A DNA stretch of 64,000 nt. It comes from Auanema rhodensis (taxonomy: Eukaryota > Animalia > Nematoda). The notes under the pieces were generated by a model. That model searched no databases. It had not been told where the DNA came from and was given only the letters and a program-made list of their open reading frames with translations. A program made the position numbers and the translations under genes. Location: assembly GCA_964057225.1 (NCBI GenBank), contig OZ059897.1, positions 14,880,001-14,944,000 on the forward strand, written 5' to 3'. Below are positions 25,553-55,100 of the stretch, one piece after another. Position 1 is the first letter of the stretch. Each line of letters starts with the position of its first letter.

Positions 25553-26685
25553 ATGGTGAGTAATCATTTAGTAACTTGAATTGTATTAATTATTGTTATT
25601 ATGTTAGCCCTCCAAGAAGGTAGTCAAGAAGAAGGTAGCTGCTCCACCCACCCACATCAGGGCAACGGTTAATGCCGAGAAGCAGGTGAAGAATCCACTC
25701 TTCGAGAAAAGAGCTAGAAGCTTCCACATCGGTAATTTAATTTTTTAATTTTTGCATAAATTTATGTGTAAAATTTTAGGAGGAGATATCCAACACAAGC
25801 GTGACCTCACCCGTTTCGTCAAGTGGCCAAAGTACATCAGACTCCAACGTCAAAAGGCCGTTCTCCAGAAGAGACTGAAGATCCCACCAAGCGTCAACCA
25901 ATTCCGTACTGGACTTGACAAGCAAACTGGTACTTTTTTTTGGATTTATTCGCAGAACTTTATGTAATAAGCACTTTGTGCAATGATGCATGCGTTCTGA
26001 TGAACCAGGTTTGTTCTCAGACCACAGTTTTTTCCGGGCTCTAATTTTTTCCTAAGTTTTTTAATCTATGCTGTTTAACTAATCGGGTTCTGTTTCGAGA
26101 AATTTATGGTTTAATTTCAGCTTCCCAGGTATTCAAGCTTTTGGACAAGTACAGACCAGAGTCCAAGGATCAAAAGAAGGAGCGTCTCCGTGCCCGTGCT
26201 CAGGCTCGTGCTGACGGAAAGAAGGAAGAAGTTACCAAGCGTCCACCAGTTGTTCGCCAGGGTATCTGCACTATCACCCGTCTTATTGAAACCAGAAAGG
26301 CTCAACTTGTCCTCATCGCCCACGATGTTGACCCAGTAGAGATCGTTTTATACCTCCCAGCTCTCTGCCGTAAATTCAATGTACCATACGCCATTGTCAA
26401 GGGAAAGGCTGCTCTCGGACGTGTTGTTCGCAGAAAGACCGCTACTTCCCTCGCCGTCGTTGACGTCAACCCGTAAGTGATCCCATTTGGTATGGATTCT
26501 TATTGTTATTTTTTAGCGAAGATAAGGCCGCTCTTGGCAAGATCGTCGAGACCGTCAACACCAACTTCAACGAGAGAGGAGAAGAAATCAGAAAGCACTG
26601 GGGTGGAGGAGTTATGTCCGCCCGTTCTGACGCCAGAAAGACCAAGCTCGAGAGAGCCAAGGCTAAGGAACTTGGTAAACTCTAA
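25553..26685 (+). CDS. rpl-7A: 60S ribosomal protein L7a (eL8)
   Basis: ATG-only first coding exon, then PSKKVVKKK..., [56 protein letters not shown]. Confidence 0.97.
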
Positions 26686-27659
26686 ACATTTGTTGTTAAA
26701 TAAATTGTTATTGTTTAAATCTGTTGTTTTTATTCCGAGGTGGGGGGGGGAACAATCTGAGATGGCGCTAGTGTTTCATCAATTTTCGTATCCCTGAAGA
26801 TTTGGAAAATTTCTAGACAGTATTGTAATTAAATTATCGTTGGTCTTGAAGGTGACCCTTTGGTTATCCGTGAACATCGGTAATTTGGTCAACTTCCGGA
26901 TCCATGCGAGGAACATGGACGGAGATGTACCCCAACCAGACTTCCTTAGCAACTTTCACGTTCGGTAAAGTGCCGTACGAAGTTTTTTCTAATGGATACT
27001 AAGCCGTATTCTCTGACAAAGGTTTTGGCTAGGCTATTCTTTGGTGAAACTGATTTTAGAAAAACGTGTGAACCTTCTGTCGTCTGCTCTAGATTCGTCA
27101 TTCTTAATTCATTTTACTTTCATTAGCGATAGCGAATGAAACAGAAACAGACAAATAATTATAGTAAATTATAAAAATCTAAAAGAAGGCCTCCCAATCA
27201 GCCAACGCATGCCCAAGTGATCTTATGAATCTCCTATATGGCTATATGACAGACGAACGCGGCCAAAAAACTGATTTTTTCTGCTTCATTGTGTAAAACC
27301 TGGTGAGGACTACATTCCTGATATTGAATATTGATTGAATTCTTTAACTATTCATTTGAAAAAGATGATATTTCCTGTGCCTGTTCTTTTACTATTTTTA
27401 AAATGTGAGTTTAAAACAATAATTAAATAATAGAATCTTTATTTTCGTACAGATAGTTGTTATGGTACAAAAACTACTGTCGTGTCTAGCACTGAGAACG
27501 AGAAAATGAAATACATTAAAATATAATAAGTTAGGTTCTGAGATGCTCTGCCGACGACGACAGCAGACCACCTTCGCGGCTTCAACTTTGTAGAAACAAG
27601 GTCGTTGCAATGAAGTGGGAAGTGAAGTTGTGGTATAAATGGTGAAATCAAGATATGGC

Positions 27660-28609
27660 TTAATATCCTGGGGCGGTTCTTGGTGGTGGGCAGTGATCGC
27701 AGGATCCCTTGGCTCCATCGCGTCCTGGGGCACCTCCTTCTCCTGGGGCTCCTGGGTTTCCTGGGGCTCCGTCTTGTCCAGCATCTCCTTGTGGTCCTGG
27801 TGGTCCAGCTTGTCCATTTTGTCCTGGACGTCCTTCTGGTCCTTGTGGTCCTTGCTCTCCTGGCTGTCCTGGTTGTCCTGGTGGTCCTGGTGGGGCTGGG
27901 ACGGTACGGACTTGTCCTGGGGCTCCTGGCTGTCCTGGTTGTCCATCGTTTCCTGGTTGTCCTGGTGGTCCCTAAAGAAAGAATTAAAGTTATTAGGTTT
28001 AAGCTTGTAGTTAGTACTTGTGGTCCTGGAGCTCCTGGGGATCCTGGGCGTCCGTTTGGTCCTGGCTCTCCTGGGGTTCCTTGGTTTCCTGGTTGTCCCT
28101 TTGGTCCTGGAGTTCCGGTTGGTCCAGCTGGTCCAACTGGGCATTCAAAGCAGAAGTCTTCAGCACGTGGTTGAACATGATCGTTAGCAGCGTCTGGTCC
28201 TGGCTGTCCTGGGGCTCCTGGACGTCCATCGCTTCCTGGGGCTCCATCTTGTCCTGGGTTTCCTACAGATCCAGCTGGTCCAATTCCGCAAGAGCAGCAT
28301 TGGTAGGCTTGACGCTTCTCACGCTTTTCGGCAGAGCGGAAAGATTCGAGCTGTAAGTGAATAGATGAAAGAGTGAATGGAAGACATATGACATGTACAA
28401 ACCTTGGTGTATTCTCCTCTGAGTGAATCAGCACGAGTTCTGCAGAAGTTGATCTCATCTTGAAGTCCAGATTGAACGTTCTGCATGTACATGCAGAGCA
28501 TTGGAACAGCAACAATGGCGGTCAAAGTGGCAACAGTAGAGACAGCAACTCCGAAGAAGGCGAACTTCTTAACGGATTCAGCCTCGATGAGTTTATGCTT
28601 ATCTTCCAT
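27660..28609 (-). CDS. Nematode cuticle collagen (copy A), 3 coding exons
   Basis: Col_cuticle_N domain ([14 protein letters not shown]...EINFCR), furin site REKR, CCSCG, Gly-X-Y blocks, C-terminal [13 protein letters not shown]. Confidence 0.95.
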
Positions 28610-31600
28610 CTGGAAAACATTAGAATATTGTAGATTATTAGCAAAGTAAAAAAAGGAATTAAACTTTTGAGAAAATCCATGAGAACTAATCATTAATTAT
28701 AAACAATATTTTAGAATAAAGCTTATTTAAAATTATAAGAATATTTCAGAATATTGCAGAATTATTTAACAGGAATAAATGAAAATTAAACATTTGTTTT
28801 AAAAATTGGAAGAAACTCCAAATAGAAAAAAAGCTTATGAAAAGCTTAAATGGCTGTAAAATGAAGCCAATATGAAGAAGAAGTGAATGAGGATGCACAC
28901 TGATTTGGATCAGCTATTGCCTTCCTTATATACTTTTTGGAAGGTGTGACGTTTTATTTTTTATGTCTCTACCTGATCAATCCTCTCCCCTTTTGTTAAC
29001 GCCCACTTTCGAGATCCGCCCCTAGTATCCTCGTCTCCTACCCCCAGGCGACGATCTGTTATCTGTACATAAAAATCATAAGTTTTGAAACAATTTTTTC
29101 GAAAAACGTTTTAAGCTAAGCTTGTAAGTAAAGTTGTATCATTATTAACAATACGTTTTATGAAAAATAAAAAAATAATTGTACTGTTACGGGGAAATAT
29201 GGATTCAACTATAATGTCACATTTAAATATTTGAATAAAATATTCCAGACATTTATACATAATAATGAAAGTATAAACTTTATTGAAACTTTAAAAAATG
29301 TTTTTTGTACTATGAAACAATGATTATTTATTCATATATAATCATATAAAAAAAGATTTTTTTGAAATTATCTTCCATTTTGGAAAATAAAAATATTACT
29401 TTTGGAACCATTTTAGTCAAAATTATCAAAATGTACAACTTATTAATAATCTTTATTTCTATTTTTAATTAATTATTTAGTAATTTACGTTTATATAAAT
29501 ATATAAAACATATCGTTTTCACCAATAAAAAATCTTGAAGTTCTAAAACATATTTCTTTTCGATTCACTCGTATTTGAAAATCGCAGATCTAGGTTGTTG
29601 TTTAAGCTTACTGTAATGAGATGGAAAAGAGACTTTTTGAATCTGAAATTGTTTGATTCTTCTTGTTTTTATCAATTTTTTATTTGAAAAATTGACAATT
29701 ATGACATATTAATATTCTTATTATATTATATATTATACAATATAATATACATATTTTATTTTTTGATTTATTACTTTTCAAATATAATTAAATTTTAGAT
29801 TAATATTATAATTAACTTTCACTTTTATGAAATAATAAATAACTTTCTCTTGTTGTAATCAAGCATGGTTTGCCGATCATTCATCGCTTTGCACTGCCCT
29901 GTTTTCCAGAACAGATAAGGATGAATCTTCCACCCATTATCTGCGTCTGATGAACAGATGAATGTCTTTTTCAACATCTTTTTTCTTTCTTTTTTTTGTC
30001 TATTCTCTTTACCATTCGCTCATCATTTTCTTCAACAATCTCTTCCCCCCCCAGGGCATAATCGTTTTTGTCCAGTTTTGGGCAGTTTCTTAAGTCCAAC
30101 TCTCGATTTCTTGCCTCCCAACGAAGAAAGATGAACTAATGAGACGATGTCAAAGGATCCAGATGATGACCTGTGATCATCTTACGTGAAATTCATCCGA
30201 GCTGGATTAGTGTAATCGAGCCACCTACAGTTTTCTATCTTCGGTGTGAAGAGGTTTATGAAGTAAAGATTTCATTCAATTAATCATAAAAATTAGCGGC
30301 CGTCGAATGAGTGTTTATTAGAATTGCATGATCTCATATAAATATAATTTAAAAATTAAAAATAATTAAAGATATTATATTCTATATAGTTAATAATTTG
30401 TTTGAATTGCCTCGCCTATAACTATCCTTTGGTTTTTTTCTCCTTAGATTAGATGAAATAAAGAAAGCTTAAGATGAGAACAGCTAAAGAAATTGAAATC
30501 TCGTCAGCTGATTTTCATGTCATGTGGTTAATGCTTTGAAAGACAAGGCCAAAGAAGTTGACAGTAATTTCAATTGGCATGAAGCTTCTTTGGAATTTGG
30601 ATAGCTTCGTTAGCTTTATTAGTTTTATTATAAATATTATGAAACTAATGTATATAGTCAACCGTTCTATATTCAAATAAAAAATGATTTTTCGGCATAC
30701 GTGTTATACGTGAACATTATTCCCATTAATTAGCATATTATTAAATAAAATTATTGACAACACCAGAAACATAATTCTTCATTTTCTCGATGGATGAACT
30801 GATTTTAAAACTGTTTGAAAGCTATATTATGAATTATTTTAAGTTTTTATTATCCGTTTAAGACCTAACAAATGGTTTTCGTGATCAAGATGGATATATC
30901 TATGATTATGAAAGGAAGTATGCTGAGGGGTTTCTGCTCCTCTTCCTTAGCTTTTTCTGGTTATCGTTCCCGTCCATCAGACACCCGTCAACTGCCTGAT
31001 GAACTGACCATGGTTTAAACAAGTTTTTAGGTAGTCGCATCACCTGAAATATAGTTTTTTGTCAAGGATTCATATCACTTCTTATATTCTTTGTTTTAAA
31101 AATAAGAAAAAAAATGGATTATTTTTTGCGTATCTTTTTTCATAACGCTCTTTTACGGAAATTTTTTTGTTTTATATAGTTTAATTATATAATTATTTTT
31201 AGTTAAATATTATATAAAAAATAACTAATTATGTAGATTATATATAATATTCAATATATTATTCATATAAATTATTTATTTAAAAACCTATTGGAAAATT
31301 GTTCTCATCAAATATCATTTTCTCTCTTCTCTCATTCTGTTTATGACGGTTTTTGATCATTTCTTTATAGGACATATGCTCGATCAAACTGTTCTCTTCT
31401 AAGGTCCATGCCATCAGGGAACGGCCCAAGAAATCCGGTTCTTCACTTGAGATGTTCTTCGAGGTCGTTGAGAAAAGGAGAAGCTGTTTTTCTTATTTAT
31501 CACTTCAAGTTATAACTCATTTTTGATAAGTTTATATTTGTTTTTTGATATATTCTTTCGGAAAACTTTCTTTCTTAACTTAAATTTCTTTAGAAAAACT

Positions 31601-31669
31601 ATCGAATTCAAAATATTTATTTCAAAGAAATAGTTGTCAGCTTGGTTTTTGCTTTTGTGCCATATTAGC

Positions 31670-33172
31670 TTAATTATAACCAGGGGGAGTTCTTGGTGGT
31701 GAGCAGTGTTCGCAACTTCCTGGTGTTCCATCGTTTCCTTTAGGCCCTGGAGCTCCAACCTCTCCATCATTTCCATCTGGTCCATTAATTCCTCTATCTC
31801 CCATTTCTCCCATATCTCCATCTAATCCAGGCATTCCCTTGAATCCATCCATTCCAGGGAATCCTTGTGGTCCTTGAGGTCCAGGAGGACCTGCTGGTCC
31901 ATCAGGTGAAAGCATATAATTGATCTAAATAGAAATATATAATAATAATAATAATGATAATGATAATTATTATTATTTCATCATAATTAATTATGAAAGT
32001 ATAATTTACACAGAGTGAAAGTGCACTTGGATCATAAATAGAATCCGTACTGGCTAAGATTCTATTCTTGTCTTTGAATTAGATAGTTCGGGCGGTAGAT
32101 GAATGGAAATTGATACAGGCTAAATCCATTTGAAGCTTTTTAAAATCTTCTATTTTACCAATTACAATGATATTCATCTAATTTATGATTAAAGCATTTT
32201 CAATTCATTTTCTGATTTTTCGCTGAATTATTTGGGAATGTTTTAATGATCAAAGAACTTATTTGAAGTTATTTGTTACTTTCAAACTTTACTTACCAAT
32301 CCGGATGGTCCTTGTTCTCCCATTGGTCCATCTTCTCCGTCAATTCCCATTTCTCCCATTTCTCCCATTGGTCCACATATTCCTTGAACTCCTGCCTCAC
32401 CAATCTAAATAATTATGCTAGTGCGGGGATTCGTAATTGATATATACTGGTCCTGGAGGTCCATCCTCTCCAAGAGGTCCTCGGGCTCCAGCGCGTCCTG
32501 GAGGTCCAGGTGGTCCTGCGGGGCAATCATAACAAAAATCAGCAGCAGTTGGTACAGCATTTTCATCAGTAGCGTCTGGTCCAGGTATTCCTGGGTTTCC
32601 ATTTCTACCGTCAGCTCCTGGCTCTCCTTCTTGTCCAGGCTGTCCAGCGGGACCGGGAATTCCAACTCCACAAGAGCAGCACAGTTCAGGAGCTAGATTA
32701 CGCTTCTGACGAACAGCCTTCTCAGCATTACGAACTGCGACAAGCTGGAAAATTTCATGTAAACGAATGAATGGCACTTTTCAATGTCCAAACTTTTTCG
32801 AATTTGGATTCAATTCGTTTGCAAAATTGAAACAAAAAAAAAGGGAAAAAGGGATTAAGAAGTGTGAAAAGATGCAATGAGAATATGTTTTTTGATCTAT
32901 TAAATATCTGAGACACCTTTTGTATTTCATCCCGAAGTCCATAATTACGTGAACGGCAAAAATCAACTTCTTGACGATATGTATTATCAATATGATGTGC
33001 ATGCATACACATTAATGGAACAACAATGATAGCAACAAGTGATACAATAGTTGACACAGTAATTCCTTTAATATTTAATAAAAAAATAATAATAAAATAT
33101 AATAAACAAACCAAATATTGCAAGTCTTTTAGAAGCTATAATTTCTTCATTTTTCTTTAAATTATTAGCCAT
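31670..33172 (-). CDS. Nematode cuticle collagen (divergent copy B)
   Basis: [21 protein letters not shown] / [19 protein letters not shown]...VDFCR, RQKR, CCSCGVG, Gly-X-Y exons, C-terminal [14 protein letters not shown]. Confidence 0.9.
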
Positions 33173-34502
33173 ATTTTGAGATCTAAATTATATTAATAAA
33201 TAATACTTTAGATAGTTAGAACACCTTATATAGATTATATCATATATAAAATAATAGTTTTATTCAAATAGTATTAGTTCTGATATTATAATTAAAGTTC
33301 GTTTCTCAAGACACGATATAGAAAATCATATAAGAATTGATGCTATAATCAGTTAATTTCAAAGTTTTAATATTATACTACATTCTGTCTTATGTACTCG
33401 TACAAGTGTGACTGTCAGGCTGGGCTTTTGGTCAAAAAAAAACCCATTCTTTTCATCATTATGTGGTATGAATAACCATATACCATTGAATAGTAGTACG
33501 ATGTGTAACAGTTGATAAAAATTTTATCAGCAAGTCAGCCAGATTTTTGAGAAAAAAAGGCTTTTAAGCGAATTTCTACGTTAGTTTCGTTTAATTTGAA
33601 TTCTAAGTTTTGTTCTTTTGAGCTCTTGAAAATGCTATAAAGATGGTAGTATCTTTCAAGCGGAACTGTTCTTTTTTCTTTTTTCAAAATTCTTTTTTCT
33701 TTTACAATATTTATCTTTTTAAAAAAGTTCCTGAGATTAATAGACTGTCTTTCAACATTTTGTTGCAGGATAGAAAGACATGAAACCTGAAAACTTGCAT
33801 GGTTTAAAAAAAATAATAGATAGCATGAAGAACCATCATTCCAATTTATTTCTATGTGTACATCGGAGGTTAGCCGACTGCGTGCGGGCGTAGTGTTGAG
33901 CAACAAGTCAAGGGTTCGAATCGGCGAATGACGAAATATACAGACCTGTTCTGAGTGAATGTGAGGACAGCAATTCATCACAACCGAGGCCTATTCTTTC
34001 TCTTTTAATATTTTTAAAATTTATTTTCTTTTAATTTGAAATGAAAATAATAATTTAAATTATTATGGCCAAAGGGAATATACAAAGCCGTATTGAATAT
34101 ATCTGAGGATAATTCTACATAAACACCAATGTTTCTGTTCATTATTTTGTTCATTTAATTGAACAAAAGATTTTTTTGTCTATTTGATCTAATGATTTTG
34201 AAATAGACAATACTTAAACTTTTTTTTTGGTTTGAAAATACTCGATGGAATCTATGAATCATTTGAAAGGTTATAAGAATATATATATATATATATATAT
34301 AAAGAATAACGTGATTAGTTCAAACGAAGAAATATACAAATTACATGTTAACATTTTAATTTGGCTTATGCATGATGAACACGTTCGTTTATAGTTTTTG
34401 CTGATAATTTGATGTCCTCGGCCAACTCGCTAAAACAATGCGAAGAAGAATAGCCTTTAAACTATACAATCCTAGTAAGAAAGTTTTCAAAGTTTTATTA
34501 GG

Positions 34503-34572
34503 GAGAGAGAGAGAGATAGAGAGAGATAGACACGACAAGAGAAAGAGAGAGAGATAGAGAGAGATAGAGAGA
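34503..34572. repeat. GA-rich microsatellite (GA/GAGATA)
   Basis: Direct reading of gagagagagagatagagagagataga... Confidence 0.7.
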
Positions 34573-34898
34573 TTTGGTGAACTATTATGTATATTATACT
34601 ATTTTTCTTTCTATTTTGTTGTATTAAAAGATTTTAAATATTCAAATAATAGAAGTGTTGTGACAAAAGTTTATTCAGTCTGATCATATGATCAATCAAT
34701 AAATACATTATAAGAATAATAGTTAGGGCAATTGTAGTTTATATGATGTTAGACATCATCAACCGGCTATATGACATACTCGCGAAAGTTTCGAGAATTT
34801 AGGATTTTTGTGTTTTAATTATTGCGTTGTGTCCCGTTATTACCGAAAGAACGAAGTAGAAAAATCTTGAGAATGTCGCATGGCAACAAAGGATTTGC

Positions 34899-36244
34899 TT
34901 AATATCCTGGAGCGGTTCTTGGAATTGGACAGTGATCACAGCCTCCTGAAATAGCAGAAATGTATAATCGGTATGTTCATTTATAATTTGATGTTGGTTA
35001 GATATATGGAAGTGAAGTGATTTTGTAATTGTTAAATTGATAATATGATTAGAGCTAGATGTTTCAATGTGATGTAGGAAGTATTTGAAGGATTACATGT
35101 GGATAAGTCAAGCTATGTTCAGCAACTGCTGATCTATCAGACAAGCGGATCAGTTTTTAATGAACTTGATAGCGCAATGGAACGTAAGGCTCTCATCAGA
35201 TATCTTTCTGACCGACATGGAGACAGCGTTGACGCCGTGTTTAGGTGTCTAGCGGAGACAACGATGTCGAAATCAGATTTTCAACCTGTCTTGTATCAAA
35301 TGATCAGAGTACAGGTCACTTTTCAAGCAGAAAATAACTTCTTTGAAGGGTGGGGAATGCCTTTGATGGAATGTTTGTAATTCTTTTGTCACTCACCCTT
35401 TGGTCCGTCGTTTCCGGCTTCTCCAGCTTCTCCTGGAGCTCCTGGGTTTCCTGGGGTTCCGTCTTGTCCGCAGTCTCCTTGTGGTCCTGGTGGTCCGGCT
35501 TGTCCTGGGTTTCCTGGTCTTCCGTCTTCTCCTGGTGGTCCTTGTGGTCCTTGCTCTCCTGGTTGTCCTGGTGGTCCTGGTGGGGCTGGGACAGTGCGGA
35601 CTTGTCCTGGAGCTCCTGGACGTCCTGGAATTCCGTCGTTTCCTGGTTCTCCTGGTGGTCCTTGTGGTCCTGGGGCTCCTGGAGCTCCTCCACGTCCTGG
35701 TGGTCCTTGCTCTCCTGGAGTTCCGCTGTTTCCTGGTTGTCCCTTTGGTCCGGCTTCTCCTGGTGGTCCAGCTGGTCCAACTGGGCATTCGAAGCAGAAG
35801 TCTTCTGGCTTTGGTTGTCCACGATCAGCTTGAGCGTCTGGACCTGGTTGTCCTGGGGCTCCTGGGCGTCCATCCATTCCTGGTGCTCCGTCTTGTCCTG
35901 GGTTACCGGCTGATCCAGCTGGTCCCATTCCGCAAGAACAGCATTGGTAGGTTTGACGCTTCTCACGTTGTGGCTTAGCAATAGCCTCAATCTACAAAAT
36001 ATAAATGATCAAATAAGAAAGGATATATAATGCAAACCTTGGTGTATTCTCCTCTGAGTGAATCAGCACGAGTTCTGCAGAAGTTGATCTCATCTTGAAG
36101 TCCAGATTGAACGTTCTGCATGTACATGCAGAGCATTGGAACAGCAACAATGGCGGTCAAAGTGGCAACAGTAGAGACAGCAACTCCGAAGAAGGCGAAC
36201 TTCTTAACGGATTCAGCCTCGATGAGCTTTTGTTTGTCTTCCAT
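34899..36244 (-). CDS. Nematode cuticle collagen (copy C, paralog of A)
   Basis: Same N-terminal exon as copy [14 protein letters not shown], Gly-X-Y, a 451-bp intron at 34946-35396, and last exon [14 protein letters not shown]-stop. Confidence 0.95.
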
Positions 36245-38592
36245 TACCAACTGAATAGATAGGGAACAGTTGATTATATTATATAAGTTAAGAAAAATAA
36301 GAATAAAAGAATAATTTAGAATAACTATAGTATGCTATACTAAAACTTTTTGTATGTTGAATATAGAAAATCAAATGATAAATAACTAAATATAAAATGG
36401 TCTATGAAAGTATAAATTTCATAAATAAATGTTTAATTGATGTAATTAATGAATGGAAATGTAATGAAATGAATGAGAAGCTGAGGATACAATGATAGAG
36501 CCGGGATTTCCAGCCTTATAAAGGCCCGATTGGGCGTCACATCCATAAAAAAGTGGTCCGTTAGTTGGGTACCGGATAATGGACTGAAGTGAACTTTCTA
36601 AAATGTCCAGTAGGGATGACTATCAGTACTTTTTATGGTTGGGCCCGTCGCGTTTTTTCTGTACCTCGGCTGACCCCGACAACGACGATTTGAAGCGTCC
36701 TCGATGTAAAACGACTAGGTAGAAGTTGATAATACATATTCATGAAGAAGACGACGATGGTAGATGTCAGATGAACTATCATCATGATAACTTTCCATTT
36801 TCATCCAAAGCTCTATGAAATCTGCAATATCTGGTTTCATGATCTGACTTTTTGAAAAAAGTTTTATTTTGGTTTTGTGGTAATTAATAATTAAATATTA
36901 ATGTTTATAACTTATATAATTTATAATAAATAACTTTATAAATATTCCTTTTTTATGATTTCTTGAATATAATATTTTATTTAAAAAGATATATTGAATA
37001 GAAAAATAGAAATTATTACAAATGAATATTTTTTCAAATAATTTGAAAAAATAAATAAAATTATAAGCAAATATTGTATAAATTTAATGATCTTTGATTT
37101 CTTATATTCTTTAATTAATTTTTTTTTATTTTTCAAATAAAAAAAAAAGATTCCAACATAACATTCTAATCTTCGATATTATTTCATTCACCTTATGACA
37201 AATAATGAAGAAGAAATCGAACTTCTCATGATTTCAGATGACCATCAACGATAATTCCTTTTGATTTGAGAAAATACATGTTATTACATTTTTTTTTGAT
37301 TAAAATTCTTAGAACATTAGATCATTTAATTATAATATCTAATTTATATAATATCATTATATTCTATAAAAATTTTAATATTTATTTAAAAATATATAAT
37401 TAACTATATTATTAATTATATATTTAAATATAGTTAATATTTATTTAATAAATATAATAATAATCATCAATATCTTGTTATATTCTCTCTTTGATATATT
37501 TTTTTCTTGTTAACATCTTCTTATTTGGAAACCGGTTAGAGCTTCATTCTAAAACGTAATCTTCTCTTACACTCTACCTACTAACCCCTCCCCATATCGT
37601 TCTTTCTTTCCGTTCCTCTTCTGTTTCTTCTCCTTATCTATTCATTCAATCATAGTTGACAAGAGGAGAATCATCAGGGTTTATCCAGAAAAAACCGGGA
37701 CGATTTGGGTGAAAATGTCACGAAAGTGAATGTATTTGTGATATATAGGGCTTCCAAATTGATAATAAGAATAAAAATTTCTTATTCTTCAAAAAATTAT
37801 ATTTTATATTTCATCTATAAGTTAATTTTATATTTCAGAATGTAAAAATCTTTTTTCAAATAAAAATTATAAAGATTATAACAACTTGATTTTCAAAAGA
37901 AATTTTGATATATGAAGACATGATAATCTTAACAGCTTTTTCATGTTTAGCTTCTCTTTCAACCGAAATAACACCTTCTTCGTTTTTTTTGATTTCATTA
38001 CTGAAATTCCTTCTGAAAAGAGACTCTCATGAACATATCATTGAAGCTGGATATCAAAAAAAAGAACAGAGAATTGAATGATACCGATTGCGAGATGGTT
38101 GGAATTGTTCCAGCTTTCCAAAAATGGTCTGCCCATCATTCCAGACATCAACTACGTCATTTCACGATATCAAACGTGTTTTCAGATGTTTTTTTCGGCT
38201 GTTCGGTATGAAATGTGGTTGATGTCCAGATGGTATCATGAAAATTTACTATTCAAACACCACATACTCATTGTTATTCAGAATTGGATATTCATGTATT
38301 ATATATTTAAAAAAATAGATGTTGACCGAAACGGAAATGAGCAGGATGCGAGTGTGAAGAACTTTTTCGGAAGTTGATGACCGCTAGCTAGACGGCAACG
38401 GAAAGCTTTTGTAATCTGCTCATCTGAGCGGTTTTAATCGGTTAATCATCAAGGAAACTGAAAGAGTTTCAACTGGACTTCACTTCTTCGACCTTCTTGC
38501 ATCACTCCCCATGCTGCTTACGGCTCTGTCAGGCTACATCAGGCTCTATGGCAGCCTATACATCCCATACCACATACGGCGATCCAGTCAAC

Positions 38593-39257: not shown

Positions 39258-40108
39258 GAGCCCGAGGATCAGGAGCCCGAGGATCAGGAGCCCGAGGATC
39301 AGGAGCCCGAGGATCAGGAGCCCGAGGATCAGGAGCCCGAGGATCAAGAGCCCGAGGATCAGGAGCCCGAGGATCAAGAGCCCGAGGATCAGGAGCCCGA
39401 GGATCAAGAGGCCAAGGATCAGGAGCCCGAGGATCAAGAGGCCAAGGATCAGGAGCCCGAGGATCAAGAGGCCAAGGATCAGGAGCCCGAGGATCAAGAG
39501 GCCAAGGATCAGGAGCCCGAGGAACAGGAGCCCGAGGATCAGGAGCCCAAGGATCAGGAGCCCGAGGATCAGGAGCCCAAGGATCAGGAGCCCAAGGATC
39601 AGGAGCCCGAGGATCAGGAGCCCAAGGATCAGGAGCCCGAGGATCAGGAGCCCGAGGATCAGGAGCCCGAGGATCAGGAGCCCGAGGATCAGGAGCCCGA
39701 GGATCAGGAGCCCGAGGATCAGGAGCCCGAGGATCAGGAGCCCGAGGATCAGAACCCCGAGGATCAGAACCCCGAGGATCAGAACCCCGAGGATCAGAAC
39801 CCCGAGGATCAGAACCCCGAGGATCAGAACCCCCAGGATCAGAACCCCGAGGAGAAGAACCCCCAGGATCAGAACCCCGAGGATCAGAACCCCCAGGATC
39901 AGAACCCCGAGGAGAAGAACCCCCAGGATCAGAACCCCGAGGAGAAGAACCCCCAGGATCAGAACCCGAGGATCAGAACCCCCAGGATCAGAACCCCGAG
40001 GATCAGAACCCCCAGGATCAGAACCCCGAGGATCAGAACCCCCAGGATCAGAACCCCGAGGATCAGAACCCCGAGGATCAGAACCCCCAGGATCAGAACC
40101 CCGAGGAG
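39258..40108 (+). repeat. 15-bp minisatellite (GAGCCCGAGGATCAG, switching to AACCCCGAGGATCAG near 39752)
   Basis: About 56 tandem 15-bp units read directly, with one 14-bp unit near 39961. Confidence 0.95.
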
Positions 40109-40109
40109 A

Positions 40110-40360
40110 AGAAGCTGGATGGGAGAAGCTGGAGGGGAGAAGCTGCAGGAACGAGCCCGAGGAAGAAGCTGCAGGAACGAGCCCGAGGAAGAAGCTGGAG
40201 GGAGGAGCCCGAGGAAGAAGCTGGAGGGAGAAGCTGGAGGGGAGAAGCTGGAGGGAGAAGCTGGAGGGGAGAAGCTCGAGGGAGAAGCTGGAGGGGAGAA
40301 GCTCGAGGGAGAAGCTGGAGGGGAGAAGCTCGAGGAGGAGGAGCCCGAGGACGAGGAGCT
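40110..40360 (+). repeat. Purine-rich 27-bp (13+14 bp) minisatellite GAAGCTGGAGGGA-GAAGCTGGAGGGGA
   Basis: Tandem units read directly; they appear as KLEGEAGGE repeats in ORF 40119..40469. Confidence 0.85.
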
Positions 40361-46300: not shown

Positions 46301-47015
46301 TTCCGGAAATAAGGTTTATACCGAGACCATCCACAAGGTTTGTTCACAAAAAAGTTCAGGCTGTAGTCACGTTGTGCCCGATGAATGAACGATTTTCTCA
46401 AAAATCATTTACTAAAATCAAATAAAAATAGTTTGAGGTTGGGTATTCAGATGTGTAGAATCTGAAATCCCTAGTGAGATTTGACTATGACTTCTGATTT
46501 TTCCGGAAATAAGGTTTATACCGAGACCATCCACAAGATTTGTTCACAAAAAGTTCAGGCTGTAGTCACGTTGTGCCCGATGAATGAACGATTTTCTCAA
46601 AAATCATTTACTAAAATCAAATAAAAATAGTTTGAGGTTGGGTATTTAGATGTGTAGAATCTGAAATTCCTAGTGAGATTTGGCTAGGACTTCTGCTTTT
46701 TCCGGAAATAGGGTTTATACCGAGACCATCCACAAGGTTTGTTCACAAAAAAGTTCAGGCTGTAGTCACGTTGTGCCCGATGAATGAACGATTTTCTCAA
46801 AAATCATTTACTAAAATCAAATAAAAATAGTTTGAGATTGGGTATTCAGATGTGTAGAATCTGAAATTCCTAGTGAGATTTGGCTAGGACTTCTGCTTTT
46901 TCCGGAAATAGGGTTTATACCGAGACCATCCACAAGGTTTGATCACAAAAAAGTTCAGGCTGTTGTCACGTTGTGCCCGATGAATGAACGATTTTCTCAA
47001 AAATCATTTACTAAA
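40395..47015 (+). repeat. 200-bp tandem satellite array, proximal block (about 33 monomers)
   Basis: Period of 200 bp (e.g. gattgggtat at 40441, 40641, 40841); occasional 199-bp monomers from an A6-to-A5 change; few variant sites. Confidence 0.98.
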
Positions 47016-47464
47016 TGTTTTGCGCCGTCGTGTCCTTAGAAATGGGTGAGCGGAGCAGTGGCATAGTTGGTTCAGTGGTAGATTTTTGTAGTGCTCTTGA
47101 TCGAAGAGAATATGGAGAGAATATTTATTATGCAACGGTAACAAGAATAAATTCTTTTACACTATTGACACATAAGAATTTGAGGAATCCTCTCGGCTTA
47201 TATACTAACGCGAGAGGCAAGATATAATGTTAACTTAGAGAATTCAGAGATACAAAAAGGGGGAGGAGAAGCAAGCGTTATCTCATGCTTATTCTGCGGA
47301 GATATGCGTGGGGGATGAGTAGCCTATGAGTCATGAGTAAAAAGAGCCTTAGGTTCAACTTACACGAATATTGATCAGTTAAAAGAGATTTATAAAGAAT
47401 TATGAAGTATTAGAAAAAGATAGAGTTTTTAAGGTTTTTTAGGAATATAGAGTGCTCAAGCACA
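47016..47464 (-). repeat. LTR (3'-LTR copy 1, 449 bp, oriented outward to the left)
   Basis: Reverse complement of 51747-52195; TGT...ACA termini; follows the env stop on the - strand. Confidence 0.82.
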
Positions 47465-47478
47465 CTCCGGCCGACGAG

Positions 47479-50103
47479 TTAGAAGATGTCCTGGAACTCG
47501 ATCGTACTGTCCTCACTGGGTGATGTTCGTGACTGCTTGGCTGGTGGTAGGTCTGTTTCTGTCCTTTTTGTTCTCAGTTTTCTTGGTGGTGTTTGGGTGT
47601 CCTTTGATAAGGTTGGCTGAATGGTCTTTGGGACCATTTGCTTCAATAGGTCCTTGATCTGTCGGAGTTCATCCAATATGTCCTTGCCTTTGTCGTCATT
47701 GTTTGATCTCATAATAATTCGAGTCAAAGTTGTAAGATCCTCACCGATGTTGCGGGTTGTGAGATCTATCCTTTTGAGTTCGGGCATAGCTTCTACGACT
47801 ATAATGTTGCTCTTTGTAGTGGGAGCTGGATCCCTTTCCTTCTGGACCTTTGTAAATCCATAAGGCATGTTCTTAAGTTCGATAGAGCTAAGATGGTCCT
47901 TCTGAATGTTGCGGACGAGGTCTGTGAGGCGCTTCTCATTGCCAAAAATTCTAAGCTTTTCCTTTTCCATATTAAAAACATAAGATGTTTTAGCTGTAGA
48001 TAGGAAATCTTTGAGCTTGATGTATGCTATTAAAGCATTAGCTGCGACATCGTTGACTTTTCCGGTGGGGGTTTCCTTGTTCTCCTCTAAGCTAAAGAGA
48101 AGCTTCAGGGTGGAGTCCATGGTCCTAGTCAGTTCTTTGAGGCATTCGGTCCTCTTTTCCAAGGGAAGTCGGATGTATTTCTGGCATCTATGATTGGAGC
48201 GATCAATGACACCTTGAATATCGGAGCAGCGAGTAGTAGGAATAGACATTATAGTGAGTATGAATACGAGAAGGATGTGAGTCTTTCTTTTGTATAGAAG
48301 AAAGAGCTGGCGGGCGAAGAAGCTGGTGACAGCGATGGGTAACCAGAGAATAATTTTTACGAGGTGAATGATGACATGGGCGGAGCTGACGGTGAATTTT
48401 GTTGCGTAAGCCGCGATGATGTGATAAGAAACAGCAAGGGCTAGCATTACTATAAGGATGCAGATTGCAATTTCTTTGTACCAGCCTAGGTAGATGTTGT
48501 AGAAATGGGTAATATCGGGCCATTGAAAGGTAATAGCTGTTTCGTGAAGTGAGGAGTGGTTTCCTTCTATGTAGTGTTTCTGCAGGTCCTGAATATTGCT
48601 GACGTAATATAATATTCCTGTTAGAGAGAAATATTGTATATTGTGTCCGCATGAATATGAACAGTTGATCCATGGTGATGCTGTAGTGATAGGTAATCGA
48701 ATATTGTTTGATGTTCCTTTTGGACTGCATTGTAGCATAAAGGCTGTGTCACCGCAGTTCGTGGCAGCTAAAGCATTTATGGGTGAAGTACATATGATGT
48801 TGGCTTGTGCTCCGTTTTGGCAGTTGTAGCATCCTCTAACCATTGAGTCATGGATTAAACATGTCGAGTCGTCGTGCGATGATGATACATTGAAGATTCC
48901 ATCCACTGTTACATAAATTTCTACCATCATGTTGCGATAGATGTTGATTTCAAGGTTCCGTTGTGACTGTTCGATTGAGTAAGCAGGTGTGAATATAGGT
49001 AAAATGGTTTGAACACTGTTAAAGACTGATTGAATGTTCTGGTTTTCACAATGGCAGTTGACTGAGTCTTCTGCAGGAGTGCATTCACACTGAGGGTTTG
49101 CTTTACAGTCCAATTTCTTTGCTTTTTCATGAGATGAGCATGTCAGTGTAGACTTCATGTTCCATATGGCCAGTCTTGTCAAATTTCTAATAAATTGTCC
49201 TTGCATTCTTGGAATAATAGGAGGTGTTAGACTGATTGCGGAGAATTTGAAAGGATGTACGTCTGTTTGAATGTCCGAATGAAGCGTGATGTTCCGTGAA
49301 GTGGTTGTGGTTCCGTTCAGATAGGTGATATGTAGTTGTGTGGAAGGTATCCATTCGTTACATGAAAAGACTTCGTAAACAGATTTGTCTATAGGTTTCA
49401 TGTAGGTGCGGTAGAAGAGGCATCCTGAAGATGGATAGAAGCAGCCACAGCCAAATCCTCCGCAGGATTCTGTGCAGTGTGTAGATCCAGGATATTGGTT
49501 GGCTAGTTCTAGTTCGTGAACCATGGTGTCCGATTGAATGGTGCTGCATTTGTTTTCTTGGCAAGATCCAGTTCTTGCGCATCTTTTGCTATTCTTTACA
49601 TGAGTACTGGTTGCTCGGGTGAAGAAGAGTGAACGGATTTCACAGAAGTATGTTGTTTTGATCCATTGTATGCGCAGAAAGGAGAACTTGTTCTGATTGT
49701 TAGTGAACGTTAGGCATGCTTCTTGTGTGTACGGGCTGATAGTGAGAGATTGTCCAGTCTGTATCTTGCATGTTTCTTTGTTGCATGAGGATTCTTGGGA
49801 AGTGCTCATACTAAGTTCTTGGCAAGCCATTGATTGGTGAATTAACAGAAGCGTTATTAATGGGATAACTGTTTTCTTGTTAAATCTATTTGTCCGGATG
49901 TATAGCTGTCCGAATAACGATGTGCATATTGCGTATATGAAGTTGGTCCAAAGTCTGATGGCTTTTCCAATGACCCATGGTGAATGCAATAGTCCGTAGC
50001 AAATGGCTGTGATTATGTAGGTTATGAAGCTGAATAGTAACATAGAGGTCCAGGGCCAGCAAGATGGGTTAAATAATGTGGCTGAGCAGAACGTGCATGA
50101 CAC
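47479..50103 (-). CDS. env: 5'-truncated belpaovirus envelope polyprotein: end of Gn, complete phlebovirus-like Gc (class II fusogen), TM segments and C-terminal extension
   Basis: Intronless 874-codon ORF. CTFC...NPSCWP and TM, signal-like segment before CQEL, Gc motifs KRCARTGSC and fusion loop CTESCGGFGCGCFYPSSGCLFYR, GCYNCQNGA. The ORF start coincides with the fold-back junction, so it has no native start. Confidence 0.88.
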   Translation of the reverse strand: MSCTFCSATLFNPSCWPWTSMLLFSFITYIITAICYGLLHSPWVIGKAIRLWTNFIYAICTSLFGQLYIRTNRFNKKTVIPLITLLLIHQSMACQELSMSTSQESSCNKETCKIQTGQSLTISPYTQEACLTFTNNQNKFSFLRIQWIKTTYFCEIRSLFFTRATSTHVKNSKRCARTGSCQENKCSTIQSDTMVHELELANQYPGSTHCTESCGGFGCGCFYPSSGCLFYRTYMKPIDKSVYEVFSCNEWIPSTQLHITYLNGTTTTSRNITLHSDIQTDVHPFKFSAISLTPPIIPRMQGQFIRNLTRLAIWNMKSTLTCSSHEKAKKLDCKANPQCECTPAEDSVNCHCENQNIQSVFNSVQTILPIFTPAYSIEQSQRNLEINIYRNMMVEIYVTVDGIFNVSSSHDDSTCLIHDSMVRGCYNCQNGAQANIICTSPINALAATNCGDTAFMLQCSPKGTSNNIRLPITTASPWINCSYSCGHNIQYFSLTGILYYVSNIQDLQKHYIEGNHSSLHETAITFQWPDITHFYNIYLGWYKEIAICILIVMLALAVSYHIIAAYATKFTVSSAHVIIHLVKIILWLPIAVTSFFARQLFLLYKRKTHILLVFILTIMSIPTTRCSDIQGVIDRSNHRCQKYIRLPLEKRTECLKELTRTMDSTLKLLFSLEENKETPTGKVNDVAANALIAYIKLKDFLSTAKTSYVFNMEKEKLRIFGNEKRLTDLVRNIQKDHLSSIELKNMPYGFTKVQKERDPAPTTKSNIIVVEAMPELKRIDLTTRNIGEDLTTLTRIIMRSNNDDKGKDILDELRQIKDLLKQMVPKTIQPTLSKDTQTPPRKLRTKRTETDLPPAKQSRTSPSEDSTIEFQDIF

Positions 50104-51732
50104 TGTAAAGCAAACCCTCAGTGTGAATGCACTCCTGCAGAAGACTCAGTCAACTGCCATTGTGAAAACCAGAACATTCAATCAGTCTTTAACAGTGTTC
50201 AAACCATTTTACCTATATTCACACCTGCTTACTCAATCGAACAGTCACAACGGAACCTTGAAATCAACATCTATCGCAACATGATGGTAGAAATTTATGT
50301 AACAGTGGATGGAATCTTCAATGTATCATCATCGCACGACGACTCGACATGTTTAATCCATGACTCAATGGTTAGAGGATGCTACAACTGCCAAAACGGA
50401 GCACAAGCCAACATCATATGTACTTCACCCATAAATGCTTTAGCTGCCACGAACTGCGGTGACACAGCCTTTATGCTACAATGCAGTCCAAAAGGAACAT
50501 CAAACAATATTCGATTACCTATCACTACAGCATCACCATGGATCAACTGTTCATATTCATGCGGACACAATATACAATATTTCTCTCTAACAGGAATATT
50601 ATATTACGTCAGCAATATTCAGGACCTGCAGAAACACTACATAGAAGGAAACCACTCCTCACTTCACGAAACAGCTATTACCTTTCAATGGCCCGATATT
50701 ACCCATTTCTACAACATCTACCTAGGCTGGTACAAAGAAATTGCAATCTGCATCCTTATAGTAATGCTAGCCCTTGCTGTTTCTTATCACATCATCGCGG
50801 CTTACGCAACAAAATTCACCGTCAGCTCCGCCCATGTCATCATTCACCTCGTAAAAATTATTCTCTGGTTACCCATCGCTGTCACCAGCTTCTTCGCCCG
50901 CCAGCTCTTTCTTCTATACAAAAGAAAGACTCACATCCTTCTCGTATTCATACTCACTATAATGTCTATTCCTACTACTCGCTGCTCCGATATTCAAGGT
51001 GTCATTGATCGCTCCAATCATAGATGCCAGAAATACATCCGACTTCCCTTGGAAAAGAGGACCGAATGCCTCAAAGAACTGACTAGGACCATGGACTCCA
51101 CCCTGAAGCTTCTCTTTAGCTTAGAGGAGAACAAGGAAACCCCCACCGGAAAAGTCAACGATGTCGCAGCTAATGCTTTAATAGCATACATCAAGCTCAA
51201 AGATTTCCTATCTACAGCTAAAACATCTTATGTTTTTAATATGGAAAAGGAAAAGCTTAGAATTTTTGGCAATGAGAAGCGCCTCACAGACCTCGTCCGC
51301 AACATTCAGAAGGACCATCTTAGCTCTATCGAACTTAAGAACATGCCTTATGGATTTACAAAGGTCCAGAAGGAAAGGGATCCAGCTCCCACTACAAAGA
51401 GCAACATTATAGTCGTAGAAGCTATGCCCGAACTCAAAAGGATAGATCTCACAACCCGCAACATCGGTGAGGATCTTACAACTTTGACTCGAATTATTAT
51501 GAGATCAAACAATGACGACAAAGGCAAGGACATATTGGATGAACTCCGACAGATCAAGGACCTATTGAAGCAAATGGTCCCAAAGACCATTCAGCCAACC
51601 TTATCAAAGGACACCCAAACACCACCAAGAAAACTGAGAACAAAAAGGACAGAAACAGACCTACCACCAGCCAAGCAGTCACGAACATCACCCAGTGAGG
51701 ACAGTACGATCGAGTTCCAGGACATCTTCTAA
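50102..51732 (+). pseudogene. env: Second, more truncated env copy in the right arm (longest ATG ORF 50281-51732), lacking the fusion loop
   Basis: The 483-aa translation is identical to the C-terminal 483 aa of the 47479-50103 ORF. Confidence 0.88.
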
Positions 51733-51746
51733 CTCGTCGGCCGGAG

Positions 51747-52195
51747 TGTGCTTGAGCACTCTATATTCCTAAAAAACCTTAAAAACTCTATCTTTTTCTA
51801 ATACTTCATAATTCTTTATAAATCTCTTTTAACTGATCAATATTCGTGTAAGTTGAACCTAAGGCTCTTTTTACTCATGACTCATAGGCTACTCATCCCC
51901 CACGCATATCTCCGCAGAATAAGCATGAGATAACGCTTGCTTCTCCTCCCCCTTTTTGTATCTCTGAATTCTCTAAGTTAACATTATATCTTGCCTCTCG
52001 CGTTAGTATATAAGCCGAGAGGATTCCTCAAATTCTTATGTGTCAATAGTGTAAAAGAATTTATTCTTGTTACCGTTGCATAATAAATATTCTCTCCATA
52101 TTCTCTTCGATCAAGAGCACTACAAAAATCTACCACTGAACCAACTATGCCACTGCTCCGCTCACCCATTTCTAAGGACACGACGGCGCAAAACA
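51747..52195 (+). repeat. LTR (3'-LTR copy 2, 449 bp, oriented outward to the right)
   Basis: Begins TGT right after GGCCGGAG (PPT position, 14 bp past the env stop) and ends ACA. Imperfect terminal IR (TGTGCTTGAGC vs TGTTTTGCGC). TATATAA at 52007-52013 and AATAAA at 52082-52087. Confidence 0.82.
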
Positions 52196-55100
52196 CTAAA
52201 ATCAAATAAAAATAGTTTGAGATTGGGTATTCAGATGTGTAGAATCTGAAATTCCTAGTGAGATTTGGCTAGGACTTCTGCTTTTTCCGGAAATAGGGTT
52301 TATACCGAGACCATCCACAAGGTTTGATCACAAAAAAGTTCAGGCTGTTGTCACGTTGTGCCCGATGAATGAACGATTTTCTCAAAAATCATTTACTAAA
52401 ATCAAATAAAAATAGTTTGAGGTTGGGTATTCAGATGTGTAGAATCTGAAATTCCTAGTGAGATTTGACTATGACTTCTGATTTTTCCGGAAATAGGGTT
52501 TATACCGAGACCATCCACAAGGTTTATTCACAAAAAAGTTCAGGCTGTAGTCACGTTGTGCCCGATGAATGAACGATTTTCTCAAAAATCATTTACTAAA
52601 ATCAAATAAAAATAGTTTGAGATTGGGTATTCAGATGTGTAGAATCTGAAATTCCTAGTGAGATTTGGCTAGGACTTCTGCTTTTTCCGGAAATAGGGTT
52701 TATACCGAGACCATCCACAAGGTTTGTTCACAAAAAAGTTCAGGCTGTAGTCACGTTGTGCCCGATGAATGAACGATTTTCTCAAAAATCATTTACTAAA
52801 ATCAAATAAAAATAGTTTGAGATTGGGTATTCAGATGTGTAGAATCTGAAATCCCTAGTGAGATTTGACTATGACTTCTGATTTTTCCGGAAAAGGGGTT
52901 TATACCGAGACCATCCACAAGGTTTGTTCACAAAAAAGTTCAGGCTGTAGTCACGTTGTGCCCGATGAATGAACGATTTTCTCAAAAATCATTTACTAAA
53001 ATCAAATAAAAATAGTTTGAGATTGGGTATTCAGATGTGTAGAATCTGAAATCCCTAGTGAGATTTGACTATGACTTCTGATTTTTCCGGAAATAAGGTT
53101 TATACCGAGACCATCCACAAGGTTTGTTCACAAAAAAGTTCAGGCTGTAGTCACGTTGTGCCCGATGAATGAACGATTTTCTCAAAAATCATTTACTAAA
53201 ATCAAATAAAAATAGTTTGAGATTGGGTATTCAGATGTGTAGAATCTGAAATTCCTAGTGAGATTTGGCTATGACTTCTGATTTTTCCGGAAATAAGGTT
53301 TATACCGAGACCATCCACAAGGTTTGTTCACAAAAAAGTTCAGGCTGTAGTCACGTTGTGCCCGATGAATGAACGATTTTCTCAAAAATCATTTACTAAA
53401 ATCAAATAAAAATAGTTTGAGGTTGGGTATTCAGATGTGTAGAATCTGAAATCCCTAGTGAGATTTGACTATGACTTCTGATTTTTCCGGAAATAAGGTT
53501 TATACCGAGACCATCCACAAGATTTGTTCACAAAAAGTTCAGGCTGTAGTCACGTTGTGCCCGATGAATGAACGATTTTCTCAAAAATCATTTACTAAAA
53601 TCAAATAAAAATAGTTTGAGGTTGGGTATTCAGATGTGTAGAATCTGAAATTCCTAGTGAGATTTGGCTAGGACTTCTGCTTTTTCCGGAAATAGGGTTT
53701 ATACCGAGACCATCCACAAGGTTTGTTCACAAAAAAGTTCAGGCTGTAGTCACGTTGTGCCCGATGAATGAACGATTTTCTCAAAAATCATTTACTAAAA
53801 TCAAATAAAAATAGTTTGAGATTGGGTATTCAGATGTGTAGAATCTGAAATTCCTAGTGAGATTTGGCTAGGACTTCTGCTTTTTCCGGAAATAGGGTTT
53901 ATACCGAGACCATCCACAAGGTTTGTTCACAAAAAAGTTCAGGCTGTAGTCACGTTGTGCCCGATGAATGAACGATTTTCTCAAAAATCATTTACTAAAA
54001 TCAAATAAAAATAGTTTGAGACTGGGTATTCAGATGTGTAGAATCTGAAATTCCTAGTGAGATTTGGCTAGGACTTCTGCTTTTTCCGGAAATAGGGTTT
54101 ATACCGAGACCATCCACAAGGTTTGATCACAAAAAAGTTCAGGCTGTAGTCACGTTGTGCCCGATGAATGAACGATTTTCTCAAAAATCATTTACTAAAA
54201 TCAAATAAAAATAGTTTGAGATTGGGTATTCAGATGTGTAGAATCTGAAATTCCTAGTGAGATTTGACTATGACTTCTGATTTTTCCGGAAATAAGGTTT
54301 ATACCGAGACCATCCACAAGGTTTGTTCACAAAAAAGTTCAGGCTGTAGTCACGTTGTGCCCGATGAATGAACGATTTTCTCAAAAATCATTTACTAAAA
54401 TCAAATAAAAATAGTTTGAGACTGGGTATTCAGATGTGTAGAATCTGAAATTCCTAGTGAGATTTGGCTAGGACTTCTGATTTTTCCGGAAATAAGGTTT
54501 ATACCGAGACCATCCACAAGATTTGTTCACAAAAAGTTCAGGCTGTAGTCACGTTGTGCCCGATGAATGAACGATTTTCTCAAAAATCATTTACTAAAAT
54601 CAAATAAAAATAGTTTGAGATTGGGTATTCAGATGTGTAGAATCTGAAATCCCTAGTGAGATTTGACTATGACTTCTGATTTTTCCGGAAATAAGGTTTA
54701 TACCGAGACCATCCACAAGGTTTGTTCACAAAAAAGTTCAGGCTGTAGTCACGTTGTGCCCGATGAATGAACGATTTTCTCAAAAATCATTTACTAAAAT
54801 CAAATAAAAATAGTTTGAGGTTGGGTATTCAGATGTGTAGAATCTGAAATTCCTAGTGAGATTTGGCTAGGACTTCTGCTTTTTCCGGAAATAGGGTTTA
54901 TACCGAGACCATCCACAAGGTTTGATCACAAAAAAGTTCAGGCTGTTGTCACGTTGTGCCCGATGAATGAACGATTTTCTCAAAAATCATTTACTAAAAT
55001 CAAATAAAAATAGTTTGAGGTTGGGTATTCAGATGTGTAGAATCTGAAATTCCTAGTGAGATTTGGCTAGGACTTCTGATTTTTCCGGAAATAAGGTTTA

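Follow-up and report, generated by a model that had tools for sequence, protein, structure and literature searches.

A 64,000-nucleotide stretch of the nematode Auanema rhodensis (assembly GCA_964057225.1, contig OZ059897.1, positions 14,880,001 to 14,944,000, forward strand; referred to as the window) contains an array of a 200-bp satellite that is interrupted by an inverted-repeat element of 5,180 bp (47016-52195), in which the 3' part of an envelope (env) gene and the adjoining long terminal repeat (LTR) occur twice in mirror image. Read inward from either end, the element shows the same 2,094 bp on opposite strands without a single difference (2,094/2,094), and the first mismatch is reached at element position 2,095. 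An initial annotation had described two identical inverted arms of this length around a 992-bp spacer, which alignment of the arms bears out. This identity rules out a chance origin of the arm match and likewise two old independent insertions. When the element was compared with the window by BLAST, the two arms were the only matches, with no similarity in the rest of the 64 kb. The element is real as a structure in the assembly, present as a single copy in one assembly.

Both the left arm (47016-49109, reverse strand, 100% reverse complement of the right arm) and the right arm (50102-52195, forward strand) comprise the 3' part of env, a polypurine-tract-like motif and an LTR; the spacer (49110-50101, reverse strand) lies between them. 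The right LTR (51747-52195, forward strand, 449 bp, TGT...ACA) has its U5-side end toward the right flank, and the left LTR (47016-47464, reverse strand, 449 bp), its mirror image, has the U5-side end toward the left flank. The U5-side LTR end thus forms both tips of the element, and the anatomy given in the initial annotation, env 3' end plus LTR with the same LTR terminus outermost, is upheld. The outer end is recognized as U5 because the stop codon, a purine-rich motif, TGT...ACA, and within the right LTR first TATATAA (52007, forward strand) and then AATAAA (52082, forward strand) occur in this order. Since the two ends of the LTR have an inverted repeat of only 3 nt in common, a misreading of U3 as U5 is ruled out for the left tip. 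The polypurine-tract-like motif of the right arm (51739-51746, forward strand) abuts the TGT of the LTR; with 8 nt, 6 of them purines, it falls short, both in length and in purine content, of the tract of about 10 nt that the International Committee on Taxonomy of Viruses (ICTV) describes.

Two long open frames are present in the element. The larger one, with 888 codons (47479-50145, reverse strand), comprises the end of the Gn-side region, the whole of Gc and a C-terminal extension, with env homology from codon 12 onwards; the 5' part of env is absent from it. The other one, with 543 codons (50101-51732, forward strand), equals the 3' part of this env frame. A domain scan of both frames returned Phlebovirus_G2 families only, with PF07245 at residues 108-411 of the 888-codon frame (E 1.4e-81), and no integrase match. 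In the C-terminal part of the frame (47479-48200, reverse strand), about 250 residues beyond the Gc membrane anchor have no Pfam match, and the alignment with the best relative reaches into this part. As the whole 5,180 bp are either env-derived or LTR, gag and pol (protease, reverse transcriptase, RNase H, integrase) are absent from this copy. The 18-nt primer-binding site following a 5' LTR is absent as well, the satellite directly adjoining each U5 end.

The 44 env relatives found are almost exclusively retroelement proteins of nematodes; every name-bearing one is a nematode sequence except one labelled as a bacterial bin, and three are unnamed. The best of them (P0001) is 41% identical over residues 12-813, corresponding to 90% of the query. 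In three relatives scanned for domains, an integrase domain and DUF5641 were each found in 3/3 and Peptidase_A17 (Pao) in 2/3, a domain set in agreement with the phlebovirus-like env reported for nematode belpaoviruses (PMC9094657). With an alignment of 14 of the 44 relatives as query, 0 of 34 pattern matches in viral contigs and 0 of 31 in metagenome contigs were confirmed as a related locus. Judged by its sequence, the copy clearly derives from a BEL/Pao-type env element, yet it deviates from the defining features of Belpaoviridae, Ginger and DIRS elements alike. Belpaoviridae have two direct LTRs of 0.2-1.2 kb (PMC8742986), while the 449-bp LTRs of this copy are inverted. Of the DIRS features, tyrosine recombinase, reverse transcriptase and internal complementary region, none was found in the two long frames. 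Membership in DIRS and in Ginger was therefore rejected.

Evidence on the parent element comes from public sequencing runs. Fifteen runs from four studies, with no RNA run on record among them, contain 82-91% of the sampled element words, and four of these (X1, X2, X4 and X8) were compared as contigs over 49110-52400; all results on contig pieces and joints refer to those listed for these four runs. In 4/4 runs, positions 49110 and 50102 are joined on opposite strands, and therefore left arm and spacer represent one continuous piece of a multicopy parent. The depth of the LTR is 1.64 times that of internal sequence in X1 and 1.58 times in X4. In X2, one contig (record 14) extends past the U5 end for another 1,907 nt, with a depth like that of env, which fits a 5' LTR followed by internal sequence and hence a parent that is an ordinary two-LTR element, without proving it. 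At three sites (50288, 51153 and 51697), both arms agree on a letter that is absent from all contig depth in 4/4 runs. These common letters stem either from one source allele or from later homogenisation, which the counts do not separate; nor does the divergence from the parent, 3 in 2,094 for the arm versus 0-1 in 992 for the spacer (p 0.56 and 1.0), distinguish source-allele variants from conversion.

In X1, X2 and X4, the same contigs hold a second subfamily of about 90% identity, with a depth of roughly one sixth of that of the main one (50114-50391 and 51477-52086; 27 differences in 278 nt). The runs with the element carry four organism labels; the three that were compared (A, B and D) have nearly the same env, and the LTR differs in D. 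Close relatives, mixed samples and horizontal spread are all possible explanations of this distribution.

The inner joint coincides with a short inverted repeat. The last 13 nt of the left arm (49097-49109, reverse strand) form the inner half of an inverted microhomology and are the reverse complement of 50102-50114 (forward strand), the 13 nt at the fold-back joint that fit both the arm and the upstream env of the parent. In X2, X4 and X8, the alignment of the parent contig on the reverse strand reaches to 50114 and so overshoots the apparent joint by 13 nt; it includes a single other letter and 0 gaps over 961-1,005 nt. The parent therefore possesses an inverted repeat of about 13 nt with at most one mismatch, the halves of which are 992 nt apart. 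Microhomology at the joint had been surmised in the initial annotation, and what is found in three of the four runs is stronger than guessed. By chance, such a repeat is expected at a given site with a probability of about 1e-6, and the 3,086 bp of arm plus spacer contain just one other. In X1, the listed piece ends at 50040, and an unexplained depth of about 1,530 over 15 bases is compatible with the same upstream piece. Further, the joint motif anchors 32 of the 44 env relatives, all of which (32/32) have Cys at the position of codon 12. The window keeps this invariant Cys, encoded within the 13 nt, though the codon lies on the inverted-arm side; the codon next outward from it differs from the residue in 31 of the 32 anchored relatives.

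A joint located on an inverted repeat of the parent points to priming by a 3' end. Of the two origins offered initially, this favours a snap-back or template-switched complementary DNA (cDNA) over two cDNAs joined after insertion. In the latter case, two cDNA molecules would each have given a U5 end to one integrase complex, after which the host resected the free ends and joined them at the 13-nt microhomology. The two U5 ends, the 5-bp flanking repeat and the microhomology are explained equally well in this way, and integration with two donors is routine in vitro. Several kb would, however, have to be lost from both molecules, unless two partial cDNAs were involved, and the chromosome break would have to be survived in the germ line. 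Moreover, the arms are identical including the three letters absent from the contigs of all four runs, for which one template is simpler than two donors. An origin from two donors is hence considered unlikely.

The host satellite array (40395-64000, forward strand) is cut after monomer position 182. Its anchor sequence occurs 93 times on the forward and 0 times on the reverse strand, deletion of the element together with one CTAAA restores a normal 200-bp monomer, and the inverted match ends at the tips without extension into the flanks. Satellite orientation and register are thus kept on both sides, as had been annotated, and the direct flanks rule out a simple fold-back read or chromosomal inverted duplication, again in line with the earlier assessment. 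Both ends of the element stop at a terminal CA with a short direct repeat outside, a feature of integrase-mediated insertion. This repeat is CTAAA on the left (47011-47015, forward strand) and on the right (52196-52200, forward strand). A target duplication of about 5 bp is typical of BEL/Pao elements, although a literature look-up gave no confirmation of this value. The "clean" 5-bp duplication first described is correct as to CTAAA on both sides, but its length is not unique. The interrupted monomer and the one that follows it (monomers 32 and 33) have the same sequence, so that the exact direct repeat flanking the element can be read with a length of either 5 bp or 205 bp, the longer alternative being the stretch 46811-47015 (forward strand), identical to 52196-52400. 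The simplest reading is a repeat of 5 bp in a monomer that was already doubled; 205 bp fits as well. Following the standard LTR cycle (PMC8742986), the precise CA ends together with the 5-bp repeat point to the action of integrase at both tips.

The longer repeat is exactly what would be predicted if two insertions of opposite orientation had hit adjoining monomers at equal phase, on two homologues or chromatids, and had been fused by exchange at the 13-nt microhomology. Such a course would need strong targeting to one monomer position, yet no LTR-to-satellite joint at any phase is present among the joints listed for the four runs, a weak argument as it covers contigs only. Identical neighbouring monomers are, in addition, common anyway, with 6 of 89 other adjacent pairs being identical and an exact one-monomer tandem duplication at 939 of 17,556 array positions (5.3%). 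Fused insertions are accordingly regarded as very unlikely.

As to the satellite itself, 52 monomer variants occur among 91 monomers, with a loose higher-order pattern of 7-8 monomers around the insertion, and in contig depth it surpasses the element by a factor of hundreds. One contig of X2 joins the satellite to itself on opposite strands (52218/52336), so the array switches orientation somewhere in that sample.

Taken together, the CA ends with the 5-bp repeat and the joint on the parental inverted repeat suggest that a stalled minus strand was primed 992 nt back. The element is thus probably a mirror-image fragment of a multicopy nematode BEL/Pao env element, made before integration by priming of stalled minus-strand cDNA at the 13-nt env repeat and inserted by integrase as one piece. 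Five steps are inferred for this course. Minus-strand synthesis would first pass the LTR and stop about 3.1 kb from the U5 end. The 13 nt at its 3' end would then pair with the complementary 13 nt located 992 nt back. This partner would belong to the same strand (snap-back) or to the minus strand of the second packaged RNA (cross-priming). From there, reverse transcriptase would copy back out to a U5 end, with the spacer as the loop of the presumed fold-back. The second strand would be finished directly in case of cross-priming, or via re-priming at the new U5 end in case of snap-back. Finally, integrase would use both U5 ends as attachment sites, with a 5-bp staggered cut in the satellite. 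Self-priming of minus-strand DNA by fold-back has been reported for HIV-1 reverse transcriptase in vitro (PMC6088434).

Alternatively, a full-length provirus might have been present first, its 5' part being replaced later by an inverted 3' copy through a break or a replication template switch. Here, the 5-bp repeat would come for free, and fold-back priming at short inverted repeats is a known route of chromosomal repair. The second switch, however, would have to hit the LTR tip exactly, with no more than 3 nt in common between U3 and inverted U5 and none between the flanks. Chromosomal fold-back, moreover, normally carries on past the element, so that the flank becomes inverted, unlike the flanks observed. 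A later rearrangement is therefore rated as highly improbable. Nested antisense self-insertion as in EVD (PMC11624286) was rejected too, since it would keep U3-side outer ends and more LTRs.

Several observations weigh against priming before integration followed by insertion in one piece. Neither the internal joint nor either of the outer junctions appears among the contigs or joints listed, and the depth sums leave no room for an internal-joint contig in X2, X4 and X8, an exclusion that does not extend to X1. LTR depth about equals internal depth in X2 and X8, that is, it is not doubled. The three letters common to both arms may equally reflect later conversion between the arms. A flanking repeat of 205 bp is not predicted by a single concerted integration, and fusion of same-phase insertions may have left it. 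Of the five steps, the finishing of the second strand has the weakest support, although cross-priming would provide for it directly. Self-primed products of HIV-1 are described as dead ends that nucleocapsid suppresses in particles (PMC6088434). In addition, chimeras of multiple displacement amplification (MDA) join at 2-21 nt of inverted microhomology, more than 85% of them being inverted with a deletion (PMC1855051).

This last type of joint matches the one found here, which raises the question of an assembly or amplification artefact, i.e., an inverted chimera at the 13-nt repeat that was built into the contig. The three junctions unseen in the contigs of four runs and a satellite context that is difficult to assemble are in keeping with it. 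A single fold-back from a normal insertion would nevertheless invert the same flank, whereas the actual flanks are direct and different. A second switch exactly at the LTR tip would be needed, with only 3 nt (TGT) in common. The missing junctions, for their part, may reflect that contigs drop rare variants and that the four runs, which also lack the three arm letters, may be from other strains. An artefact is thus judged decidedly unlikely. The mechanism proposed, priming of a stalled minus strand at the env repeat, is well constrained; it concerns a single copy in one assembly, and independent sequence support for the junctions was not found in the contigs of the four runs.

Compared with known systems, the element shares with the belpaoviruses of the Atlas virus type (Ancylostoma ceylanicum) a Gc-like env (PF07245) ahead of the LTR (PMC9094657), from which it differs in its inverted LTRs with U5 at both tips and in the absence of gag, pol, the 5' env part and a primer-binding site. 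A likeness also exists to HIV-1, where the 3' end of self-primed minus-strand strong-stop DNA folds onto a complementary stretch and is extended by reverse transcriptase (PMC6088434); that case concerns short strong-stop DNA in vitro, while here the fold-back would lie 3.1 kb in and the product appears to be integrated with a target duplication. Ginger1 DNA transposons are alike in terminal inverted repeats (TIRs) starting with TGT, in a short target duplication and in their link to LTR integrases (PMC2836005). In contrast to them, the present element encodes no integrase, has repeats of 2,094 bp, is known from one copy and gives no sign of excision. Dispersed copies with the same structure were not seen either, the joint being absent from the contigs listed for the four runs. 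In PMC2836005, the path from LTR elements to DNA transposons is called unclear, and two opposite LTRs flanking an integrase, derived from two insertions, are suggested; a route by fold-back cDNA would need only one.

DIRS elements are not known to leave target duplications. DIRS-1 has inverted LTRs too, but possesses a tyrosine recombinase and a designed replication scheme, while here the inversion would be an accident of a direct-LTR element. Twin-priming inversions of L1 (PMC2837659) and inverted Penelope ends resemble the element in that one event leaves an inverted segment within a target duplication. Those processes are target-primed and independent of integrase, however, and twin priming leaves no second 3' end at the opposite tip. 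In maize, Mu killer (cited in PMC11624286) is likewise an inverted duplication of part of a transposon with a possible hairpin RNA; its silencing has been shown, while the hairpin RNA of the present element is predicted from its layout.

Outside the array, the window contains further features. At the satellite edge (39258-40359), a 15-bp tandem repeat of about 57 copies grades into 13/27-bp repeats, with more than one reading frame open; an isolated, incomplete monomer of the satellite is located at 38589. A cuticle collagen gene cluster, which by itself identifies the host as a nematode, occupies 27400-36250, two of its genes being 81% alike over 900 bp. Other exons belong to a destabilase (1084-1455), a sugar transporter (22981-24913) and an L7Ae-family protein (26045-26476).

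No published description was found of an LTR element inserted with identical ends at its two tips and flanked by a duplicated target; the literature searched is thin in subscription journals and in the older virology papers that dealt with aberrant retroviral DNA, which makes this outcome a weak argument for novelty. In this literature, inverted LTRs were found for DIRS only, and U5-U5 only in the context of RNA packaging. What is new here is the inverted repeat of about 13 nt that the parent carries at the joint, as seen in public contigs.

For the copy itself, which lacks gag, pol and primer-binding site, a further round of retrotransposition is predicted to be impossible, so that it probably marks a dead end. 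The promoters of its two LTRs would point outward, one on each strand, into the satellite, and read-through RNA would fold into a perfect hairpin of 2,094 bp, the layout of Mu killer. If the element is real and was formed before integration, it would be a natural germ-line record of an LTR integrase using two U5 ends on one palindromic DNA, and its cause would be pinned to a specific short inverted repeat in the parent. A wider generalization, tentative and rather doubtful at present, is that fold-back priming at short inverted repeats recurs in the reverse transcription of LTR elements and that integrase accepts U5-U5 palindromes in vivo. One event would then turn direct LTRs into TIRs, a fold slightly further upstream would enclose the integrase gene and supply the missing step to Ginger-like DNA transposons, and each product would, from the outset, be a hairpin "killer" allele directed at the family it came from. 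If recurrent, such U5-U5 palindromes would escape annotation tools that seek direct LTR pairs, but they would have a searchable signature, namely the same LTR end at both tips, a duplication of 4-6 bp and a joint on a parental inverted repeat. Should the element itself be real and formed before integration, two questions would come within reach of testing: by what route TIR elements could arise from LTR elements, and whether hairpin silencers are generated by the very bursts of retrotransposition that they would silence.

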